A stretch of 64,000 nucleotides of DNA from Eledone cirrhosa (Eukaryota), in NCBI GenBank assembly GCA_964016885.1, contig OZ024758.1:12958001-13022000 (forward strand), read 5' to 3'. Below the pieces are notes generated by a model. It searched no databases. It was not told where the DNA came from and saw nothing but the letters and a program-made list of their open reading frames with translations. The position numbers and the translations under genes are program-made. Below are positions 1 to 48,612 of the stretch, one piece after another (within the stretch, counting starts at the first letter, position 1; each line of letters starts with the position of its first letter).

Positions 1-445
1 TCATTTAGAAGCATTGCTTGCTTCCAAGTTGAGCCCAGGCCACGCGCATTTAAACAGCCTACTCTTAGCATAGCCATGTTGGTGGTGAAGAGAAAAGGCA
101 CTTACCTCTCTGCGTCCCGGGTATCGGGCTGCACAATTTCCATTAGGGTGGGGGATGGGTTGTTGGGTGGGGTGGTGGTTTGTGGAAGTGTGGGGGCATC
201 AGTGTGTTGTGTGGTTGGGGAGCTTGGAGTTGTGAGGGTGTTTGGGGAGGGGGTGGGATAGTTTTTTAGGAGGACGCGGTTAATGGGCCCGACGCAGGGG
301 GGACCCACGTCCTCTTTAAAATTGTTTTTTAAAGTTTTATAGGTGTCCTGTGGGGCCTTAATCATTTTGAGGTGGGGGAAATCCCCTGCCTGGGTGAAGT
401 TAGGCCCTTGTGTTTTTATTAGATTGTTGTTGTACACAATGTTTA
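1..445 (-). mobile_element. 5'-truncated copy of the Tx1-like retrotransposon (ORF1 3' part 102-445, ORF2 start at 77 running off the window), joined to (GATA)n
   Basis: Nearly identical to 46491-46935 (one substitution noticed, aggacgcggt vs aggactcggt). Homology stops at ~445 and is followed by (GATA)n at 449-483. Confidence 0.95.
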
Positions 446-2778: not shown

Positions 2779-4830
2779 CCATGGACCCTGACACAAGCAC
2801 TTGAGAAGAAATTAGATGGTGCATACACTAACATACTTACGGTTGTTCAAAACATAAACGTATTACAAATGAAAATTGATAGAGAAACTTGCCCAAGATA
2901 ACAACTACAATTACTTATAGACGATTACAATTTACAGGAGATTACTGGAGAAGTAAGCAGGAAGTTATACACAAGGTACTATTTGGTAACCCATGAGAGA
3001 CACAGCAGATGAAGTTATACACAAGGTACTATTGTGGGAACCAACCCATGAGAGACACAGTAGAGTAAGTTATATACAAGGTACTATTTGGGAACCCATG
3101 AGAGACACAGTAGAGTAAGTTATATACAAGGTACTATTTGGGAACCCATGAGAGACACAGTAGAGGAAGTTATATGCAAGGTACTATTTGGTAACCCATG
3201 AGAGACACAGCAGAGGAAGTTATATACAAGGTACTATTTGGTAACCCATGAGAGACACAGCAGAGGAAGTTATACACACGGTACTATTGTGGGAACCAAC
3301 CCATGAGAGACACAGTAGAGTAAGTTATATACAAGGTACTATTTGGTAACCCATGAGAGACACAGTAGAGGAAGTTATATACAAGGTACTATTTGGGAAC
3401 CCATGAGAGACACAATAGAGGAAGTTATATACAAGGTACTATTTGGTAACCCATGAGAGACACAGCAGAGGAAGTTATACACAAGGTACTATTGTGGGAA
3501 CCAACCCATGAGAGACACAGTAGAGTAAGTTATATACAAGGTACTATTTGGTAACCCATGAGAGACACAGTAGAGGAAGTTATATACAAGGTACTATTTG
3601 GTAACCCATGAGAGACACAGTAGAGGAAGTTATATACAAGGTACTATTTGGGAACCCATGAGAGACACAATAGAGGAAGTTATATACAAGGTACTATTTG
3701 GTAACCCATGAGAGACACAGCAGAGGAAGTTATACACAAGGTACTATTGTGGGAACCAACCCATGAGAGACACAGTAGAGTAAGTTATATACAAGGTACT
3801 ATTTGGTAACCCATGAGAGACACAGTAGAGGAAGTTATATACAAGGTACTATTTGGGAACCCATGAGAGACACAATAGAGGAAGTTATATACAAGGTACT
3901 ATTTGGTAACCCATGAGAGACACAGCAGCAGAGGAAGTTATACACAAGGTACTATTGTGGGAACCAACCCATGAGAGACACAGTAGAGTAAGTTATATAC
4001 AAGGTACTATTTGGTAACCCATGAGAGACACAGTAGAGGAAGTTATATACAAGGTACTATTTGGGAACCCATGAGAGACACAATAGAAGAAGTTATATAC
4101 AAGGTACTATTTGGGAACCCATGAGAGACACAATAGAGGAAGTTATATACAAGGTAGTATTTGGGAACCCACGGGAGACACAGTAGAGGAAGTTATATAC
4201 AAGGTACTATTGTGGGAACCAACCAACGGGAGACACAGTAGAGGAAGTTATACACAAGGTACTATTGTGGGAACCAACCCACGAGAGATACAGTAGAGGA
4301 AGTTATACACAAGGTACTATTGTGGGAACCAACCCACGAGAGATACAGTAGAGGAAGTTATACACAAGGTACTATTGTCGGAACCAACCAACAAGAGACA
4401 CAGTAGATGAAGTTATATACAAGGTACTATTTGGTAACCCATGAGAGACACAGCAGAGGAAGTTATACACAAGGTACTATTTGGTAACCCATGAGAGACA
4501 CAGTAGAGGAAGTTATACACAAGGTACTATTGTGGGAACCAACCAACGGGAGACACAGTAGAGGAAGTTATACACAAGGTACTATTGTGGGAACCAACCA
4601 ACGGGAGACACAGCAGAGGAAGGCCTGCTCCAACCTTGATATATCAACTCTCAAAGAGATACAAACCTCAGTAGGGAACAGTTGCCAGGGGCAATGGAAA
4701 ATCACGAATTGGGGAGAGACTATGTCATGAATATTCGACTGTGGTCACAGTGATAATGATTATGAGGATGATCATGATGGTGATGATGCTGATGATGATG
4801 GTGATGATGGTGATGGTGATGATGATGATG
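2779..4830 (+). mobile_element. Degenerate RTE/RTE-X-type LINE 3' fragment with (GAT)n tail, interrupted by an internal minisatellite
   Basis: Translates as PWTLTQALEKKLDGAYTNIL...LPKITTTITYRRLQFTGDYWRSKQEVIHKVL before the array and ...WEPTNGRHSRGRPAPTLIYQL after it. This is the typical post-RT C-terminus of RTE-like ORFs. A (GAT)n tail follows at ~4750-4830. Confidence 0.75.
2958..4620 (+). repeat. 50/55-bp minisatellite, about 32 units
   Basis: Unit ccatgagagacacagtagaggaagttatatacaaggtactatttgggaac (period 50, e.g. 3351->3401), interspersed with a 55-bp variant containing attgtgggaaccaacc. Confidence 0.95.
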
Positions 4831-8722: not shown

Positions 8723-8810
8723 TTATTTTTGTTAGTAGTAGTAGTAGTAGTGGTGGTGGTGGTGGTGGTGGTGGTGGTGGTGGTGGTGGTGGTGGTGGTG
8801 GTGGTGGTGG

Positions 8811-11450
8811 TGCTGATGGTATTGGTGGTGGTGTTAGTGGTTGGGATGATGGTGGTGATGGTGATGGTATTGGTGGTGGTGTGAGTGGTTGGGACGATGG
8901 TGGTGATGGTGATGGTATTGGTGGTGGTGTGAGTGGTTGGGATGATGGTGGTGATGGTGATGGTATTGGTGGTGGTGTGAGTGGTTGGGATGATGGTGGT
9001 GATGGTGATGGTATTGGTGGTGGTGTGAGTGGTTGGGACGATGGTGGTGATGGTGATGGTATTGGTGGTGGTGTGAGTGGTTGGGATGATGATGGTGATG
9101 GTGATGGTATTGACGGTGGTGTTAGTGGTTGAGATGATGGTGGTGATGGTGATGGTATTGGTGGTGGTGTGAGTGGTTGGGATGATGGTGGTGATGGTGA
9201 TGGTATTGGTGGTGGTGTGAGTGGTTCTGATGATGGTGGTGATGGTGATTGTATTGGTGGTGGTGTGAGTGGTTGGGATGATGGTGGTGATGGTGATGGT
9301 ATTGGTGGTGGTGTGAGTGGTTGGGACGATGGTGGTGATGGTGATGGTATTGGTGGTGGTGTGAGTGGTTGGGATGATGATGGTGATGGTGATGGTATTG
9401 GTGGTGGTGTGAGTGGTTGGGACGATGGTGGTGATGGTGATGGTATTAGTGGTGGTGTGAGTGGTTGGGATGATGGTGGTGATGGTGATGGTATTGGTGG
9501 TGGTGTGAGTGGTTGGGATGATGGTGGTGATGGTGATGGTATTGGTGGTGGTGTGAGTGGTTGGGACGATGGTGGTGATGGTGATGGTATTGGTGGTGGT
9601 GTGAGTGGTTGGGATGATGATGGTGATGGTGATGGTATTGGTGGTGGTGTGAGTGGTTGGGACGATGGTGGTGATGGTGATGGTATTGGTGGTGGTGTGA
9701 GTGGTTGGGATGATGATGGTGATGGTGATGGTATTGGTGATGGTGTTAGTGGTTGGGATGATGGTGGTGATGGTGATGGTATTGGTGGTGGTGTGAGTGG
9801 TTGTGATGATGATGGTGATGGTGATGGTATTGGTGGTGGTGTGAGTGGTTGGGACGATGGTGGTGATGGTGATGGTATTGGTGGTGGTGTGAGTGGTTGG
9901 GATGATGATGGTGGTGATGGTGATGGTATTGGTGGTGGTGTGAGTGGTTGGGATGATGGTGGCGATGGTGATGGTATTGGTGGTGGTGTTAATGGTTGGG
10001 ATGATGATGGTGATGGTATTGGTGGTGATGATAGTGGTTGGGATGATGGTGGTGATGGTGATGGTATTGGTGGTGGTGTGAGTGGTTGTGATGATGGTGG
10101 TGATGGTGATGGTATTGGTGGTGGTGTGAGTGGTTGTGATGATGATGGTGATGGTGATGGTATTGGTGGTGGTGTGAGTGGTTGGGACGATGGTGGTGAT
10201 GGTGATGGTATTGGTGGTGGTGTGAGTGGTTGGGATGATGGTGGTGATGGTGATGGTATTGATGGTGGTGTTAGTGGTTGGGATGATGATGGTGATGGTG
10301 ATGGTATTGGTGGTGGTGTGAGTGGTTGTGATGATGGTGGTGATGGTGATGGTATTGGTGGTGGTGTTAATGGTTAGGATGATGATGGTGATGGTGATGG
10401 TATTGGTGGTGGTGTGAGTGGTTGTGATGATGGTGGTGATGGTGATGGTATTGGTGGTGGTGTGAGTGGTTGTGATGATGGTGGTGATGGTGATGGTATT
10501 GGTGGTGGTGTGAGTGGTTGGGATGATGGTGGTGATGGTGATGGTATTGGTGGTGGTGTGAGTGGTTGTGATGATGGTGGTGATGGTGATGGTATTGGTG
10601 GTGGTGTGAGTGGTTGGGATGATGGTGGTGATGGTGATGGTATTGGTGGTGGTGTGAGTGGTTGTGATGATGGTGGTGATGGTGATGGTATTGGTGGTGG
10701 TGTGAGTGGTTGGGATGATGGTGGTGATGGTGATGGTATTGGTGGTGGTGTGAGTGGTTGTGATGATGGTGGTGATGGTGATGGTATTGGTGGTGGTGTT
10801 AATGGTTGGGATGATGATGGTGATGGTGATGGTATTGGTGGTGGTGTGAGTGGTTGTGATGATGGTGGTGATGGTGATGGTATTGGTGGTGGTGTGAGTG
10901 GTTGGGATGATGGTGGTGATGGTGATGGTATTGGTGGTGGTGTGAGTGGTTGTGATGATGGTGGTGATGGTGATGTTATTGGTGGTGGTGTGAGTGGTTG
11001 GGATGATGATGGTGGTGATGGTGATGGTATTGGTGGTGGTGTGAGTGGTTGGGATGATGGTGGCGATGGTGATGGTATTGGTGGTGGTGTTAATGGTTGG
11101 GATGATGATGGTGATGGTGATGGTATTGGTGGTGATGATAGTGGTTGGGATGATGGTGGTGATGGTGATGGTATTGGTGGTGGTGTGAGTGGTTGGGATG
11201 ATGGTGGTGATGGTGATGGTATTGGTGGTGGTGTGAGTGGTTGGGATGATGGTGGTGATGGTGATGGTATTGGTGGTGGTGTGAGTGGTTGGGATGATGG
11301 TGGTGATGGTGATGGTATTGGTGGTGGTGTGAGTGGTTGGGATGATGATGGTGATGGTGATGGTATTGGTGGTGGTGTGAGTGTTTGGGATGATGATGGT
11401 GATGGTGATGGTATTGGTGGTGGTGTGAGTGGTTGGGATGATGGTGGTGA
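8811..11450. repeat. 48-bp GT-rich minisatellite, about 55 units
   Basis: Unit attggtggtggtgtgagtggttgggatgatggtggtgatggtgatggt (8821->8869), continuing from a (GGT)n tract. Confidence 0.95.
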
Positions 11451-11802
11451 TGCTGGTTGTGATGTGAGTGGTTACCATAGTGGTTGTGGTGGTGGCAGCG
11501 GTGACATATGAGAAAATGGCGGTGGTGGTGTTAGAAGGGAGGGTGTGCTAGAAGGAGGGTGGTGTTGTTAGTGTGGTGGTGGTGTTAGGGTGGTTGTGAC
11601 GACGGTGACATATGAGAAGATGGCGGTGGTGGTGCTAGAAGGGGGGGGGGTTAAGATGGCGGTGTTGTTCCTCTTCCTGACGTCATTTAATGACGTATTT
11701 TGTTAGAGCTTCAAGAGAGACAATAAAAACACCGACCAGCGACTTTTGTAGCTGTGTGTGTATATATGTGTGTATGTGTGTGTATGTGTGTGTGTATGTG
11801 TA

Positions 11803-15705: not shown

Positions 15706-15708
<3 letters not shown>

Positions 15709-15964
15709 CTCTCTATATCAGCCTGTAGTTTGAGGAAAAGAAGGAGAGGAAAGGAGTACAAACTCTTCGTACTCCTGGAGATGAGGGTTGCACATTTTTT
15801 TTCGGGGGTATGTGTTACCCATATAAACTGTCTCCCTCTATTGGGGAAAATCGACTAACTTTTTAAATTCCATTTGTGATAACATTTTACACGTTTTTAT
15901 TGTATGTAAACTTCCCCCTTTGTATTTGTCCCCTTCTTTTGTGCCCCTGTGGCTAATAAAGAAA
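15706..15964 (+). mobile_element. Tx1-like subfamily B 3' end inserted in (TCTA)n
   Basis: Nearly identical to the reverse complement of 41931-42192. Encodes the ORF2 end (SLYISL*) and finishes gcccctgtggctaataaagaaa, with (TCTA)n on both sides. Confidence 0.9.
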
Positions 15965-32496: not shown

Positions 32497-32770
32497 CCAG
32501 TACATTACTTTATTACATACTTTATTTTATCGACCCCGTAAGTATGAAAGGCAAAGTTAACCTCAGCGGGAATTTAACTCAGAATGGAAAGGGCCGACCG
32601 TAACTCTTTGCATCAAAGCATGGCGTCCGACCCTCTACCGATACTGCCATATAATTGTTTCTACGTTAGGCACAAGGCCAGCAATTACCCAGTGTATTAC
32701 TGGTACTTTATTTTATCGACCCCGTAAGGATGAAAGGCAAAGTTAACCTCGGCGGGATTTGAACTCAGAA
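32497..32770 (-). mobile_element. Two tandem tRNA-derived SINE copies
   Basis: Reverse complements of the 8536 family at 32497-32649 and 32652-32770. Confidence 0.85.
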
Positions 32771-32786
32771 TGATACTGCCATATAA

Positions 32787-32913
32787 TGATAGCTAAACTG
32801 AACAGGTTTTATATTAGGACCCACCTCTTGCCATTGTGCACTTTTACTCGACATTATTGTCTGTGTCTTTGTATTGTACCCTAAATGTCGGCCCTTGTGG
32901 CCTATAAATGAAA
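32787..32913 (+). mobile_element. Tx1-like 3' terminus ending in (TTA)n
   Basis: Ends ggcccttgtggcctataaatgaaa-(tta)n, the same terminal hairpin and poly(A)-signal-like motif as the Tx1 copies. Confidence 0.45.
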
Positions 32914-32934: not shown

Positions 32935-34098
<1,164 letters not shown>

Positions 34099-41534: not shown

Positions 41535-41707
41535 TTGTCTGTCTGTCTGTCTGTCTCTGTGTCTATTGGTCTCTTACTCTCTCTAATCGTGCACACAGAC
41601 AGATATACATGCAAGTGTATGTATATATGTACATGTGTGTATGTATGTATGTATGTATGGATGGGAGACAGACAGACAGAAAGGCAGACAGACAGACAGA
41701 CAGACAG

Positions 41708-41765
<58 letters not shown>

Positions 41766-41766
41766 T

Positions 41767-41805
<39 letters not shown>

Positions 41806-41807
<2 letters not shown>

Positions 41808-41871
41808 ATTTATTTGCCATAAGGGCGTACACAAATGGGACATTACAAGACGTTACGGCGGGGGGGTTGAC
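41806..41871 (-). mobile_element. 65-bp Tx1-like 3' terminus (subfamily C) in (GATA)n
   Basis: Minus strand gtcaacccccccgccgtaacgtcttgtaatgtcccatttgtgtacgcccttatggcaaataaattt-(atct)n. Confidence 0.75.
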
Positions 41872-41930
<59 letters not shown>

Positions 41931-41931
<1 letters not shown>

Positions 41932-42424
41932 TTCTTTATTAGCCACAGGGGCACAAAAGAAGGGGACAAATACAAAGGGGGAAGTTTACATACAATAAAA
42001 ACGTGTAAAATGTTATCACAAATGGAATTTAAAAAGTTAGTCGATTTTCCCCAATAGAGGGAGACAGTTTATACGGGTAACACATACCCCCGAAAAAAAA
42101 TGTGCAACCCTCATCTCCAGGAGTACGAAGAGCTTGTACTCCTTTCCTCTCCGCCTCCTTTTCCTCAACCTACAGGCTGATATAGAGAGAAGGCCCATTC
42201 ACTCGGGCCATTCTCGCCACTTTCACCCACCTTTTATAAAACTTGCTGGGGTACAGCACCTCTCTCTCCATCCTGATTCTTCTTCCAAAGTGGTATTTGA
42301 AAAAAAGAATCAGTTGTTGGCCGGAGAGAAAGGTGTCTGACCTCAGCCCTTTCAACCTTGTCCACCATACAACCTCTTTCGCCATAGCTATCACACAAAG
42401 GAAAACCGCCTCTCCTTCGTTTTT
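41931..42424 (-). mobile_element. 5'-truncated Tx1-like subfamily B copy in (GATA)n
   Basis: ORF2 C-terminus IAMAKEVVWWTRLKGLRSDTFLSGQQ...NGPSLYISL (42170-42394) is highly similar to the full element, but its 3' UTR differs. Confidence 0.9.
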
Positions 42425-42448
42425 GATAGATAGATGGATAGATAGATA

Positions 42449-42747
42449 ACTTTCTTTTTATTTGCCACCAGGGCATCAAAAGTGGGACAAGTACAATGGG
42501 GGGAGTTTACAAAACAAGGCATCCTCAATAAGGAGGAGGCAATAACAATATATAAAAATAAAATAAAATATAACAAAAATAAAATTTATAACAAAGTCCT
42601 CAATAGAGAGGAGGCGCCTTGGGGGGTCGCACACACCCCCGAAAAAAGTGTGCAACCCTTCTCCTCAGGAGCACAGAGAAGGGGTGCTCCCTTGGTCTTT
42701 CATCTTCCTCACCTATAGTCTGATGTAGAGTGAAGGCCCATTCACAC
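42449..42747 (-). mobile_element. 5'-truncated Tx1-like subfamily A copy (3' UTR + ORF2 end) in (GATA)n
   Basis: Near-identical to 42868-43165. Confidence 0.9.
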
Positions 42748-42771
42748 AGATAGATTGATAGATAGATAGAT

Positions 42772-42836
42772 AAATTTATTTGCCATAAGGGCCTACACAA
42801 ATGGGACATTACAGGACGTGACGGCGGGGGGTTGAC
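42772..42836 (-). mobile_element. Second 65-bp Tx1-like subfamily C terminus in (GATA)n
   Basis: Same sequence and same 5' end point as 41806-41871, with a few differences. Confidence 0.75.
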
Positions 42837-43129
42837 AGATAGATAGATATATAGATAGATAGATATATTTCTTTTATTTGCCACTAGGGCATCAAAAGTG
42901 GGACAAGTACAAAGGGGGGAGTTTACACAAAAAGGCGTCCTCAATAAGGAGGAGGCAATAACAAAATATAAAAATAAAATAAGATATAACAAAAAATAAC
43001 ATTTTTAACAAAATCCTCAATAGAGAGGAGGCGCCTTGGGGGGTCGCACACACCCCCGAAAAAAGTGTGCAACCCTTCTCCTCAGGAGCACAGAGAAGGG
43101 GTGCTCCCTTGGTCTTTCATCTTCCTCAC

Positions 43130-46100
43130 CTATAGTCTGATGTAGAGTGAAGGCCCATTCACACGGGCCATTCTCGCCACTTTCACCCATCTTTCATAGA
43201 AACGGCTGGGGTGCAGCACCTCTCTCTCCATCCTGATCCTTCTTCCGAAATGATATCGGAAGAAACGGACCAGTTGTTGGCCAGAGAGAAAGGTGCCCGA
43301 CCTCAGTCCTTTCAGACGCGTCCACCATACAACCTCTTTCGCCATGGCTATTACGCACAGAAACACCGCCTCTGCTTCATCTTTGAAGGGGGGAGGCGGC
43401 TTGATCATTACAATAGACTCGGTGGTCAACCGGATCGGTCCCACCCTTGACAGCAGTTGTTCGACATAGCCCCACAGATCGGCTACGCCCGAGCAGTGTA
43501 CTAATGCGTGTGCAACGGTTTCCTCGTCGCACACGCATCTGGGACAGATCTTTTTGGCGGGGTCCCTACCCGGGCGCCCGTGTCTGTAGAGCCTTTCTCG
43601 AACGGGTAAAGCCCCTCGGTAGCACTGCCAGGCCAGGGACTTCTGGAAGTTGTCCATAGGTCCCGGGCTGAATGTCCTACCGAAAAGGCTGGCCAGTTCG
43701 TCCTCCTCCATGTCTAGGGCTTCTCCGAGGGCGTCGTCGCACCTGCTGCGTACCAGCCCTCTATAGAATGTTGCGGTGGAGTCTCCACTGATAACCGGAT
43801 CCGCTTGCCAGAGGGCGGTGAGCGCCTGGGCACACTCAGTGTGCCAGGCGCCCAGTTTTCTCGGTCTTTGCTTGACCCAGGATTGCAGCTCGGTGAGTGA
43901 GACGAGTCTGGGAAAGGTTCGTCTCACAAACGAGGCCCACACCGGTTGTCCGGTGAGGAATACGTAGAGGTGCCGTAGCCTTAATGCGTGTTTACGCATC
44001 ATTAGCCACGGCATCCCCAGCCCTCCTTTCGAAGGGTGTTGACAGCAGATGGATCTCCTCACCATAGGAGCCCGCCTCTTCCAAAGGAATTGGAAGAGCG
44101 CGCGCTCCATCTTGGTGAGGGTTTCCCTTGGGCAGGGCACTACGGTCAGGCGGTAGTAGATGACGGACGCTATGTAGGTGTTCGCCACCTCCGCCCGACC
44201 TTTCAGGGATAGTTTGCAACTGGCCCACTTCTGGGTCAGTGCAAACACCCTGTTCGTAACCTCCGCCCAGTTTTTCTCCACCTGGAGGTCCGGTCCGAAC
44301 CAGACCCCGAGCAACTTCACCGGGCCCTCCGTCCAGCGTCCGACGACGCTATCGGAGGGCATCGGTCTGCCCCTCCACGTGCCGAGTTGCAAACCGATCG
44401 ACTTGTCCCGGTTCAGCTTAGCCCCTGTGAACTTTTCGTACTCCTCCAGTAAGGTGCCGACCGCCTCGATTTCGGAGGCCGTCGACACCATTACTGTCAC
44501 GTCATCGGCGTAGGCCGACACCGCTTTCCGCAATCCCGGTTCCAAAGGGATGCCCTGCAACAACTCCAACTTCCGCAGTAGTGGCTCGAGAGTCAATACA
44601 TACAGAAGGGAGGAGAGAGGGCACCCTTGTCGGATGGACCGCGCGATTTTGAACGGCTCCGAGAGGTAGCCGTTCACCTTGACCCTAGAGCAGATGCGGC
44701 TGCTGTGCATAGCAGTGATCCAGCCCCTGAAAACGGCTCCGAAGCCTGCCGCCGCTAGCACCGCATCCAGGTAACCATGGTCGACCCTATCGAACGCCTT
44801 AGATTGATCCAAGTTGATCAGAGCCCCACCAAAGCCGGGTTCGTTCCCAACCCTCTCTATGATGTATCGCATGAGGTGGAGGTTGTCATGGATGGACCTG
44901 GACGGGATAGCGCATGTCTGCGCATCTCCCACCAGGTTGCCCACGACAAGCGCCAACCTCTTTGCTAGCACCTTGGCCAAAATCTGTAACTCTGTATTTA
45001 GCAGTGTTATGGGCCTGAAGTTACTTATTTCGTCCCCCTTGTTCTCGTCCTTCCTCACTAGCGTGACTACGCCCTTGGTCACAGTACAGGGAATTCTCCC
45101 GTTCTGTTGCCAGTTGCAGTAGACCGCCTCGAGGAGATCGGGGAACAAGTCCGGCATAGCTAGATATAATTCGTAAGGAAGACCATCGAGACCCGGGGAT
45201 TTGCGTTTGCCGCATTGGCTCAGCACGTCCTCTATCTCAGCGGCCGAAATCGGCTCCTCGCAGGACTTCGCCTCCCTGTCCGAGAGGCGCGGCAGGCCGT
45301 CGAGGTATGGACCGAAGTCCACGTTCCCAACCGGCTCCCCGCCCCTCCCGAACAGTCGGGCAAAGTGCCTTTGAAAGGCCTCACACATCTGCTTAGGCTC
45401 AAGAATCGCCCGTCCATCCAGGTCTCGCAAAGACCGGATGGTGGATTTAGTTCCACTGTTGGCCTCTGTCACGCGGGCCCAGCTAACAGCTTTGGTCCCC
45501 TCGTTCCCTAGAGCACGTATTTTACTTCGGACAACGCAGCCTTCGTGCTTCGCGTCGAAAAACTGGCTCAAAGCCGTTCTCGACGCTAGCACTCTGGCCA
45601 CGTCGCCGCTTCTAATTGCCTCTTCTACTCTATCTATTAGCTCCCTTTCCTTCCTATTCCTATCCGCAGCTAGAACCTTACTAAATTCTATCGAGACTAC
45701 TCTAATCTCTCTCTTTAGAGATACCCACCACCTGCTGTTGACGATCGCTCCAGTCAACCGTTCCTTAACTAACGTACTAATCCGATTCCTGTAGGCTCTA
45801 CTTGCCGGCAAGGACAAGTTGAGCTTCCAGTAACCGGGGCCCTGTCTATGAGTTCTGTCAAGGTTGACCATGCAGGTCACTAATTTGTGGTCTGAATAGC
45901 CAACAATGCGCATTTTTGGACAACTTAAAAAGTCCTTATCCTTAATTCTAACTAAGAACCTATCTAGGTACGACCTAGATGATCCGCTACGATTTGCCCA
46001 AGTCCAGGTTGGCGCAGTCGGAAAATCTAGTCGATATCTATCGGCCAGGTCAAATCGACCGATTAACCCTTTGAGGCTATTACACCCCTCTCTATCGGGG

Positions 46101-46567
46101 CAGGCCCCTACGTAGTCCCAGCGTGCATCTAGGATACCATTCCAGTCCCCCACCAATAGCAAGGAGCGGGACGTCCCTAGAAAAGTCTCCAGACGATGGA
46201 AGAAGTCCGGCCGCATTGACCCGAAAGGGCCGTAGGCGGCTACCAACCTAAACGCTCCGCCTTTACCACTGCCAAGGTCCAGAACCACTAGTCGACCCTC
46301 CGGGTCCAAATGTACCATCTGTGTTGCGAGACCCAGATGTTTTTGCAGCAGAACGACAACTCCACCCCCACCTCCAGGCTGACAGAGAGATGCGTGCATC
46401 TCAAAGTCATCAAAGGCGGGGGCCAGCTGTCGCACGCTGCTGATCCGGGCCTCGCAAATAACCATCACATCTATACGTTGTGACCTGAGGTCATTTAGAA
46501 GCATTGCTTGCTTCCAAGTTGAGCCCAGGCCACGCGCATTTAAACAGCCTACTCTTAGCATAGCCAT
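43130..46567 (-). CDS. ORF2p: apurinic-like endonuclease + reverse transcriptase + C-terminal CCHC (Tx1/L1 type), 1145 aa from the first ATG
   Basis: APE motifs GCLNARG, GDWN, YLDRFLV and SDH. RT motifs KSPGLDG, FRPITLLN, LDQSKAFDRVDH, IRQGCPLS and AYADD. C-terminal CPRC..EETVAHALVHC. No stops or frameshifts. The track's start at 46591 is a GTG, and the first ATG is at 46567. Confidence 0.95.
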   Translation of the reverse strand: MAMLRVGCLNARGLGSTWKQAMLLNDLRSQRIDVMVICEARISSVRQLAPAFDDFEMHASLCQPGGGGGVVVLLQKHLGLATQMVHLDPEGRLVVLDLGSGKGGAFRLVAAYGPFGSMRPDFFHRLETFLGTSRSLLLVGDWNGILDARWDYVGACPDREGCNSLKGLIGRFDLADRYRLDFPTAPTWTWANRSGSSRSYLDRFLVRIKDKDFLSCPKMRIVGYSDHKLVTCMVNLDRTHRQGPGYWKLNLSLPASRAYRNRISTLVKERLTGAIVNSRWWVSLKREIRVVSIEFSKVLAADRNRKERELIDRVEEAIRSGDVARVLASRTALSQFFDAKHEGCVVRSKIRALGNEGTKAVSWARVTEANSGTKSTIRSLRDLDGRAILEPKQMCEAFQRHFARLFGRGGEPVGNVDFGPYLDGLPRLSDREAKSCEEPISAAEIEDVLSQCGKRKSPGLDGLPYELYLAMPDLFPDLLEAVYCNWQQNGRIPCTVTKGVVTLVRKDENKGDEISNFRPITLLNTELQILAKVLAKRLALVVGNLVGDAQTCAIPSRSIHDNLHLMRYIIERVGNEPGFGGALINLDQSKAFDRVDHGYLDAVLAAAGFGAVFRGWITAMHSSRICSRVKVNGYLSEPFKIARSIRQGCPLSSLLYVLTLEPLLRKLELLQGIPLEPGLRKAVSAYADDVTVMVSTASEIEAVGTLLEEYEKFTGAKLNRDKSIGLQLGTWRGRPMPSDSVVGRWTEGPVKLLGVWFGPDLQVEKNWAEVTNRVFALTQKWASCKLSLKGRAEVANTYIASVIYYRLTVVPCPRETLTKMERALFQFLWKRRAPMVRRSICCQHPSKGGLGMPWLMMRKHALRLRHLYVFLTGQPVWASFVRRTFPRLVSLTELQSWVKQRPRKLGAWHTECAQALTALWQADPVISGDSTATFYRGLVRSRCDDALGEALDMEEDELASLFGRTFSPGPMDNFQKSLAWQCYRGALPVRERLYRHGRPGRDPAKKICPRCVCDEETVAHALVHCSGVADLWGYVEQLLSRVGPIRLTTESIVMIKPPPPFKDEAEAVFLCVIAMAKEVVWWTRLKGLRSGTFLSGQQLVRFFRYHFGRRIRMEREVLHPSRFYERWVKVARMARVNGPSLYIRL

Positions 46568-46591
46568 GTTGGTGGTGAAGAGAAAAGGCAC

Positions 46592-48373
46592 TTACCTCTC
46601 TGCGTCCCGGGTATCGGGCTGCACAATTTCCATTAGGGTGGGGGATGGGTTGTTGGGTGGGGTGGTGGTTTGTGGAAGTGTGGGGGCATCAGTGTGTTGT
46701 GTGGTTGGGGAGCTTGGAGTTGTGAGGGTGTTTGGGGAGGGGGTGGGATAGTTTTTTAGGAGGACTCGGTTAATGGGCCCGACGCAGGGGGGACCCACGT
46801 CCTCTTTAAAATTGTTTTTTAAAGTTTTATAGGTGTCCTGTGGGGCCTTAATCATTTTGAGGTGGGGGAAATCCCCTGCCTGGGTGAAGTTAGGCCCTTG
46901 TGTTTTTATTAGATTGTTGTTGTACACAATGTTTAACAGTTTTTTGTTTCTTGTATTTATGTATGTGTATGCATGTTTTTGTTTTTGTGTGGTGTTTTTT
47001 GTTTGCTGTTGTGAGCTCTTTTGTGTTGGTGTCAGTGTTATGTTTTGGGGAGGGGTTTTTTTCATTTGTGTGTCTGAGGTGTGTTTTCTTTTTTTTCTTT
47101 TGATTGTGTGGAAGTGCTCCTCCTCGTCTGACGACGAACTAGGGTCATCTTCTGCGTTGGAGGGGAGGGGTATATTTTCGGGTTGTGTTTGCGGTACGGG
47201 TGTTTTGGAAATTGTTTTTGTTTTTTGAGTGGAGGGGATGGGTTGGACATTGTTTTGTTTTGGTTTGAGCTGTGGTGGTTGTTTTTGTAGTGGTTGTTGT
47301 GGTGATTGTGTTGGTTGTGCAGTTGTTGGTGGTGTAGGCAGGATTGGGGTTTTCTTATTAAGTTGGGGACAGACAGCCCTCAGGTGACCTCTGGTTCCGC
47401 AGAGGTAACACGAGGGCCGTCTACCCTCAACGGTAATGTTGATGAAGGTTAGATCATCCAGTATGACGCGTTCAGGGATCTGGGCGATCCTTTCGGGCCT
47501 CATTTGAACTACAAGTTCGAGGCTCGTTCCACTGAACGCGTCACCCGATGCCTTTCCCATGGACACCAGCATGTCATCCTCCAGGTCCAGAAAACCTGTC
47601 AAAACCCACCATATGTCCATAATCGGCAGGATGGTGTGGATTTTTATTTTTTGTGTTCTTCTACCCATGTACGTAGGGTAGAAGGTGTATGCGGTGGATG
47701 TGATTGGTTTGATGGACAGTTTCACTGCTGTGTCCCTGTCCTTCATGAGAATGGATAGACTCCCGTAGAGTCTATCCTTCTGAATGAAGGTGATGTCCTT
47801 CATGACGTCTTTTAAAACCAGCTCTATCTCGCTCTGTGATGGTTGAGCTGGTTTTTTACTTTTGTTCGAGATTGTCCTAAACATGACCGTGTTTAGGAGT
47901 CTCTGGCTTTTTAGTTCCGGGGGGGAATGGATTGTGAATGAACCATTTTCCCCGTACACTATATATTTTTTCGCATCCGCCAGTAGCTCCTTCGCTTTTG
48001 TTATATCTACTGGCAGATAGTCGAGGGTTTTCCTTGTCGTCTCGGCGAAGGAGAAATTTTGTTTGTTTGTGTTGTTGTTGTCGTTGGTGGTGTTGTTGTT
48101 ATCATTGTTGTTGTTGTCACCGTTATTGGTCTTGTTGTTGTTATTGTTATTGTTATTGGTGTTGTTTTCTACCGTCGCATTGTTGTTGTTGTTGCTGTTG
48201 GTTCTTTGGGTTGTTGCCATGGTAACGTCAAGTTGTCGGTTAACAGGTGGAGAGAATTCTTCCTCTGGCTGACCTATCTTCTTGACCTCTGCTACTGTGA
48301 CAGTGGCAGGGGGAAGCTGTAAGTTCATCTTCCCCTTTCCTCCTTCGAATTTTTGTGAAGAAGCTTCGGCCAT
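46592..48373 (-). CDS. ORF1p: gag-like nucleic-acid-binding protein (593 aa)
   Basis: Zinc knuckle CYLCGTRGHLRAVC (CX2CX4HX4C) after VEGRRP, Asn-rich N-terminal tract, Pro/Gln/Thr-rich region and basic KRKKRK. Lies directly upstream of ORF2. Confidence 0.9.
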   Translation of the reverse strand: MAEASSQKFEGGKGKMNLQLPPATVTVAEVKKIGQPEEEFSPPVNRQLDVTMATTQRTNSNNNNNATVENNTNNNNNNNNKTNNGDNNNNDNNNTTNDNNNTNKQNFSFAETTRKTLDYLPVDITKAKELLADAKKYIVYGENGSFTIHSPPELKSQRLLNTVMFRTISNKSKKPAQPSQSEIELVLKDVMKDITFIQKDRLYGSLSILMKDRDTAVKLSIKPITSTAYTFYPTYMGRRTQKIKIHTILPIMDIWWVLTGFLDLEDDMLVSMGKASGDAFSGTSLELVVQMRPERIAQIPERVILDDLTFINITVEGRRPSCYLCGTRGHLRAVCPQLNKKTPILPTPPTTAQPTQSPQQPLQKQPPQLKPKQNNVQPIPSTQKTKTISKTPVPQTQPENIPLPSNAEDDPSSSSDEEEHFHTIKRKKRKHTSDTQMKKTPPQNITLTPTQKSSQQQTKNTTQKQKHAYTYINTRNKKLLNIVYNNNLIKTQGPNFTQAGDFPHLKMIKAPQDTYKTLKNNFKEDVGPPCVGPINRVLLKNYPTPSPNTLTTPSSPTTQHTDAPTLPQTTTPPNNPSPTLMEIVQPDTRDAER

Positions 48374-48612
48374 TTAAAAAAATATTGACTTTTCAACAAG
48401 AAAAAACTTTTTTTTTAACTATTTCGCCTAAAGGCGTAGAATATTTTGAGAGACTGACCAGATCAAAGTTTGACCTGGCAGTCCCTCTACAAAATGGTAC
48501 AAAATTTAAAGTTATCAGACAAGAATTTCTATAGAAATTTAAACAGAACTTACTCAGCAAGTTATACGCGTGTGTCCATCATAGATAGATAGATAGATAG
48601 ACAGACAGACGA

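Follow-up and report, generated by a model that had tools for sequence, protein, structure and literature searches.

We analysed a 64,000-nucleotide stretch of the Eledone cirrhosa genome (assembly GCA_964016885.1, contig OZ024758.1, positions 12,958,001 to 13,022,000 of the forward strand), hereafter the window, in which a near-full-length long interspersed nuclear element (LINE) with an apurinic/apyrimidinic endonuclease-like (APE) domain lies with shortened relatives in one (GATA)n microsatellite. The features of this stack are given below in window coordinates; letters denote families, ORF an open reading frame, UTR an untranslated region, and GATA on the strand shown corresponds to TATC on the sense strand of the minus-strand copies.

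41707..41805, no strand: distal (GATA)n tract, running on into (GACA)n
41806..41872, minus strand: 65-bp 3' end of family C, copy 1, with the same junctions as copy 2 and likely a duplicate
41873..41930, no strand: (GATA)n spacer
41931..42424, minus strand: truncated family B copy, 99.4% identical to other B copies
42425..42448, no strand: (GATA)n spacer
42449..42747, minus strand: truncated copy of an A-related subfamily, 96% identical to the full copy and 98.3% to copies at other loci
42748..42770, no strand: (GATA)n spacer
42771..42836, minus strand: 65-bp 3' end of family C, copy 2
42837..42865, no strand: (GATA)n spacer
42866..48580, minus strand: family A element of nearly full length, with the terminal TA at 42866-42867 included (sequence, self-comparison)
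42868..43129, minus strand: its 3' UTR, 262 nt, with a conserved GCC-N5-GGC motif, then AATAAA and AGAAA at the end, no poly(A)
43130..46567, minus strand: its ORF2, 1145 aa from the ATG, with APE endonuclease, reverse transcriptase (RT) and a C-terminal CX2CX8HX4C knuckle (Pfam)
46592..48373, minus strand: its ORF1, 593 aa, with a CX2CX4HX4C zinc knuckle
48374..48580, minus strand: its 5' UTR, 207 nt
48581..48599, no strand: (GATA)n at the 5' junction of the full element, grading into (GACA)n

The full element has the traits of L1-group APE-type elements, namely an ORF1 and an ORF2 with APE, RT and a C-terminal CCHC knuckle, and its lineage has those of non-LTR elements (variable 5' ends from truncation, target site duplications and no long terminal repeats, LTRs). 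Pfam identified the domains Exo_endo_phos, RVT_1 and zf-RVT on ORF2, and the best match in the Protein Data Bank, both by sequence (E 1.5e-48) and by predicted fold, is human L1 ORF2p. This closest solved structure has the APE-RT-CCHC layout and the catalytic residues in common with the window ORF2, although the two are only 16-17% identical in the fold alignment. The APE motifs N, E, Y, DxN, D and DH are kept when ORF2 is aligned to it, and the catalytic residues are intact. The knuckle of ORF1 is visible in the sequence, with a weak Pfam zf-CCHC match (E 0.051), and residues 110-345 show likeness to RRM/CCHC proteins, with ESM Atlas scores of 0.90-0.92 to CCHC/RRM clusters. A scan of the 5' UTR against Rfam gave no match at gathering level. 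Other full-length copies start 4-6 nt earlier, at CTGG, TCTGG or ATCTGG, and the window copy is slightly clipped, missing about 5 nt of the family 5' end. The original prediction, made from the window sequence, had described one intact element with an intact endonuclease; both ORFs are indeed whole and the catalytic motifs are kept, and only the 5' end falls short.

Searching the 3.0-Gb genome with the APE domain gave 35,587 first-look candidates, and all of the best 150, which were scored, are 99-100% identical; the full 1153-codon frame is present in 125 of them. Both ORFs are kept in 20 of the 37 full-length regions that were fetched, and the copy in the window matches another genomic copy at 99.93% identity over 5713 bp. 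So many near-identical intact copies indicate recent activity, and family A appears by sequence as a young, intact and recently active lineage.

Loci were gathered by searches with the end of ORF2, the 5' end of family A and the 3' UTRs of A, B and C. Ends that agreed in their first 45 flanking bases were counted once; perfect-repeat sites are merged by this rule, and TATC is undercounted as a result. The 3' terminus consists of AATAAA, AGAAA or GAAA and two further bases, and runs directly into the repeat: TATC stands immediately after 106 of 112 A/B 3' ends (A 62/68, B 44/44), poly(A) was found at none of the 112, and GATA was never seen on the sense strand at the junctions of the A/B ends examined. 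On the other side, TATCTATC lies at most 30 bp upstream of 46 of 59 truncated 5' ends (A 16/22, B 30/37). Of the six misses among truncated A copies, four are internally deleted copies whose 5' end is full, without which A stands at 16/18, and the same repeat precedes 21 of 24 full-length A copies. By comparison, TATCTATC occurs at most 30 bp upstream of a random position in 1.2% of cases in the window and in 0.02% at the loci of a Dong/R4-like family that served as control. In that family, (TAA)n follows all of the 3' ends displayed (27, from 27 of 30 loci) and TATC never does, so the TATC flanks are not a general property of LINEs in this genome; Dong elements use a restriction-like endonuclease. 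Both the 3' ends (106/112) and the truncated 5' ends (46/59) of the A/B copies exceed the value of 20% of flanks with the target by which PMC4494074 recognizes microsatellite-specific Tx1 families.

Outside the stack, the window holds two further pieces of the lineage, a member of a sister family and a copy of the control family:

1..445, minus strand: 5' part of a 4068-bp truncated family A copy (L406) that extends left of the window, with TATC at both ends
15706..15964, plus strand: truncated copy of family B, flanked on either side by (TATC)n
32795..32912, plus strand: 3' end of sister family E that runs into (ATT)n; same lineage, though not part of the stack
32945-33969, minus strand: 5'-truncated Dong/R4-like fragment in (TAA)n

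From the window alone, the original prediction had recognized seven pieces (the five of the stack and those at both 1..445 and 15706..15964), (TATC)n on the element sense strand at all their junctions and AATAAA running straight into the repeat through a few bases without poly(A); sequence and self-comparison recover all of this, with every piece at its proposed place and strand. Its proposal of strand-specific tetranucleotide targeting also agrees with the genomic sample, where most truncated copies have TATC rather than other DNA as their 5' flank and where the orientation relative to the repeat is fixed, not random.

Target site duplications can be read at nine imperfect sites. They measure 12-27 bp (L016 15, L025 12, L094 25, L097 13, L101 27, L107 12, L123 18, L124 21 and L146 13 bp), start with TATC exactly after the terminal dinucleotide and include non-repeat sequence. 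Of 133 distinct A/B ends, 126 have TATC as their first unit, five TATA, one TATT and one TACC, the exceptional units sitting in (TA)n, TACC-type or satellite DNA. Given duplications at imperfect sites and exceptions that follow the local DNA, the repeat preceded the insertion; the TATC repeat is the target and not only a tail. The opposite view would make the repeat an element-made tail, with untargeted insertion and a 5' TATC taken from the tails of neighbours or from read-through. TATC at nearly every 3' end, the 39% of ends that abut another lineage member and a TATC run 5' of L093 in a TACC-type site would all suit such a tail, but truncated copies cannot carry a 5' flank and yet have TATCTATC at 46 of 59 ends, many of them in unique DNA, and duplications with non-repeat bases start with TATC on both sides. 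We regard this explanation as extremely improbable. One further family A copy (L013, C4:76757258-76760520) sits in an AT-rich satellite (about 58 bp), and its 22-bp duplication starts with TATA instead of TATC.

We consider it probable, with good confidence, that a young and intact lineage of APE-type LINEs, likely of the Tx1 clade, inserts in (TATC)n/(GATA)n at a fixed orientation, duplicating its target, and that nicking of the GATA strand by its endonuclease is the likely cause; the position of the nick and the specificity of the endonuclease are what we infer from the junctions. Target-primed reverse transcription would then start with ORF2p nicking the GATA strand at or near 5'-GATA^GATA-3', and the RNA would be reverse-transcribed from the terminal dinucleotide after AATAAAAGAAA. 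Priming would perhaps be aided by one or two read-through UAUC units paired with the nicked strand, and the second strand would be cut 12-27 bp downstream. Since TATC would be left on both sides of each insertion, the site would stay a target and co-oriented relatives would accumulate, with local duplication enlarging some of the stacks.

Several observations weigh against this interpretation. Nine of 55 truly truncated A/B ends have no TATCTATC in 30 bp, some of them with imperfect or single units; L114 and L115 have neither a 5' TATC nor a duplication, and L117 is inserted at a single TATCT. L063 has CATC on its 5' side and TATC on its 3' side, a hint that the RNA can carry UAUC, and the 5' run of L093 suggests that the 5' TATC of full-length copies may come with the RNA. 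If the RNA does carry UAUC, the position of the left edge has an uncertainty of 4 nt in each duplication. In addition, the locus samples consist of the best-scoring hits, that is, the youngest copies, and are not a full census. The specificity is strong but not strict, and (TA)n, (TACC)n and single-TATC sites occur.

These exceptions bear on the main rival, according to which targeting works mainly by RNA-DNA pairing: a loosely specific endonuclease would nick AT-rich DNA, and the nick would be productive only where the read-through UAUC 3' end anneals. The lack of poly(A), the better preservation of the first TATC unit (126/133) than of the second (104/133), L063, the use of (TA)n sites and the finding that APE loop swaps do not simply transfer specificity (PMC1950540) are all in its favour. 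At (TA)n, TACC or satellite sites, however, the first unit after the dinucleotide follows the site and is not TATC (7/133; e.g. L013), and at L025 and L107 the unit count of the 3' flank equals that of the 5' flank, meaning that nothing was added. We therefore hold pairing to be unlikely as the main determinant, although it may contribute to the mechanism.

The two 65-bp family C pieces have both junctions and private variants in common, differing by three substitutions and one indel, and among 40 scored hits they alone match the whole 67-bp query; one is therefore likely a duplicate of the other. The stack, presented in the original prediction as five-deep, is indeed a head-to-tail series of pieces in (GATA)n, but it probably records four insertions and a local duplication rather than five insertions. 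Identity to other copies (C piece 92-96%, A-related piece 98.3%, B 99.4%, A 99.9%) gives an age order in which, by this measure, C is the oldest, followed by the A-related piece, B and A. Nor is the depth unusual: at 60 of 153 A/B 3' ends (39%) a co-oriented member of the lineage lies across the repeat, with one piece in the opposite direction. Stacking is the norm for the lineage, as expected if every insertion regenerates its target, and the depth seen in the window is ordinary.

The whole pattern could also have arisen if copies inserted at random and survived selectively in repeats, or through recombination within repeats or their collapse in the assembly. Duplication accounts for some stacks (the two 65-bp pieces here; at C3:217.9 Mb, three copies that share an identical spacer) and the genome is rich in simple repeats, both of which speak for this reading. 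Survival leaves the strand polarity (no GATA-sense junction) and the fixed phase unexplained, sister families and Dong use different repeats in the same genome, and copies that are 99.8% identical are spread over many contigs and differ in their flanks and in where they are truncated, all of which make it highly improbable in our judgement. The C3 array (C3:217897502-217914700; L047-L049, L410, L411) holds three tandem full-length copies with an identical imperfect TATC spacer, and by its sequence is a tandem duplication, not a set of separate insertions. At C14:18977500-18994700 (L408, L409) three long family A copies share one TATC array with spacers of differing lengths.

The three different 3' UTRs already noticed in the original prediction correspond to three families, A, B and C. 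In the C-terminal part of ORF2, B is 87-88% and C 73-77% identical to A, and the C tail is immediately preceded by ORF2 at 16 of 28 non-window loci. The window piece at 32795-32912 has the 3' motif in common with them, but (ATT)n follows. Among its genomic relatives (family E), 21 of 30 loci show ORF2 homology upstream, and at none of the 30 does TATC follow the 3' end. In family F, ATTATT follows 22 of 24 3' ends and precedes 6 of 12 truncated 5' ends, TATC being found at none, and of nine E/F copies extending as far as the start of ORF2, seven show (ATT)n at 2.1-2.4 kb upstream.

All TATC families, namely A, B, C and a further three encountered in flanks, fall in a single clade, with values of the Shimodaira-Hasegawa-like approximate likelihood ratio test (SH-aLRT) of 100 for RT and for RT plus C-terminus and of 95 for APE. 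The RT plus C-terminus tree places E as sister to this clade (99) and F outside, a topology that suggests an ancestral use of ATT. Less favourable are the APE tree, which joins E and F (89) and is neutral on an ATT-to-TATC direction, and the fact that the trees are quick searches with SH-aLRT support only. With the TATC families in one clade beside families that use (ATT)n, the target was likely switched once, probably from ATT to TATC. The APE domains of the two family sets are about 60% identical, and in the loop aligned with the L1 betaB6-betaB5 hairpin one residue is Ser in the TATC families but Ile or Met in E and F. This difference lies on one branch and is therefore a lead only; such a loop alone does not transfer specificity, and grafts or swaps of APE loops between distant enzymes failed in simple form (PMC1950540). 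An AlphaFold model was set aside as evidence, since with a mean predicted local distance difference test (pLDDT) of 68.6 and less than 50 in the hairpin loop it says nothing on specificity. More tentatively, and doubtful in its full form, one could picture a radiation of octopod Tx1 elements, with at least 125 intact copies of one family, that switched once from (ATT)n to (TATC)n through few endonuclease changes, such as Ile/Met to Ser in the loop, and that reshapes GATA arrays by self-regenerating insertion.

Other elements share the surroundings of these families. Several Dong-like copies abut ATT-family Tx1 ends in the opposite direction, having ATT/TAA arrays in common with E and F. A tRNA-type short interspersed nuclear element (SINE; L131, L132, L252, L264, L282, L294, L296; window ~32530-32780) runs with its 3' end into ATT and often adjoins ATT-family Tx1 copies or sits inside family C 3' UTRs. 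A SINE-Tx1 chimera considered at L131/L132 was rejected, the SINE being inserted there in a family C 3' UTR. The GCC-N5-GGC motif of the 3' end reads ACC-N5-GGT in family F and may form a stem-loop, a lead that rests on one compensatory event with a search pattern that forced part of the stem. A consensus 5' splice site, AG/GTAAGT, coincides in part with the ORF1 stop (46589-46594, minus strand), and the ORF2 stop (43130-43132, minus strand) reads YAG/G; families B, C, D, G and E have similar signals, and F ends in TAA. A spliced, ORF2-less retrocopy was discarded as a candidate: none was seen at 66 ORF1-end sites, counted without deduplication, and the contigs of runs X1-X6, which gave no information on flanks, held no joint of this kind.

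Trees of the RT domain, built without named Repbase Tx1, Kibi or Koshi sequences, place the lineage together with 5S-adjacent elements, a Keno-like element inserted in U2 and a Stylophora 'TX1 149 kDa' protein, apart from the L1-like P0070 (support 86-92). P0070 scores 316 bits to human L1, against 168 for the window ORF2, and membership in the Tx1 clade is likely. The closest proteins to ORF2 are one at 69% identity, one of Argonauta hians at 62% over 59% of ORF2 and one of Acanthosepion pharaonis at 52% in the RT; a metagenome scan (alignment A1) returned only distant relatives of 24-32% identity.

Among known systems, Kibi in (TC)n and Koshi in (TTC)n of teleosts and the crocodilian Tx1 families in (TTCC)n/(TTTC)n (PMC4494074, PMC3812793) are likewise APE-type Tx1-clade LINEs that insert in a particular microsatellite. 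The present lineage differs from them in its (TATC)n target, in the (ATT)n of its sister families and in its octopod host, a distinction drawn from target descriptions and not from sequence; with TATC as first unit in 126 of 133 ends, the (TC)n or (TTC)n target of Kibi and Koshi is not matched. Microsatellite targets listed in PMC3812793 are ACAY, AC, TC, TTC and TAA, and Togen targets (TG)n (PMC4640811). Dong, of the R4 clade, with (TAA)n (PMC3812793), and Waldo/Mino, of the R1 clade, with ACAY/AC, resemble the lineage in targeting a microsatellite with fixed polarity but belong to different clades, and L1 has a weak TTAAAA preference and poly(A) tails (PMC3812793). In the portions of the literature searched, with Repbase, Dfam and Fig. 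3 of PMC4494074 outside that search, no GATA/TATC-targeting Tx1 element was found. Octopus repeat surveys, as far as their available text goes, list L1-Tx1 without targets (PMC13282606, PMC8967140, PMC10294476), one of them counting 13 recently active among 80 total L1-Tx1 families, the 80 being from Octopus vulgaris (PMC13282606). The kind of system is already known; what appears to be new is the GATA/TATC target and the probable close ATT/TATC switch.

Keno is a U2 snRNA-targeting Tx1 element (PMC4494074, PMC6136364). The Keno-like locus L332, with U2 on both sides by Rfam, resembles the window element in its layout, in an A-rich end that lacks a long poly(A) and in the TATCT at the start of its 3' junction, but it is only 40% identical in the RT and 30% in the APE domain and belongs to a separate clade. 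The common TATCT may be chance. One exact junction pattern joining the element end to an L332-type U2 site had no match in the genome, and Rfam found no U2 in or beside the window element; descent from a U2-targeting Keno ancestor, which the TATCT likeness had raised, is unsupported by the trees or by the junction-pattern search. The Keno-like metagenome loci L332, L326 and L328 all have a further U2-like piece upstream of ORF2. Genes for 5S adjoin L334 and L338, where 5S as a target is not established, and a 'tRNA' label put on L340 by eye found no confirmation in Rfam.

How APE-type LINEs choose microsatellites is described as poorly understood (PMC3812793). Two family sets with APE domains about 60% identical that use different repeats in one genome offer a close natural pair for decoding target choice, and since one set is intact, domain swaps are practical. 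Octopod repeat annotation and GATA markers are also affected, many GATA tracts being insertion sites of a young 5.7-kb element. Apart from these elements, the window contains two tandem arrays, one at 2959-4595 with a 50-bp unit in 31.7 copies and one at 8754-11452 with a 48-bp GGT-rich unit in 56 copies.

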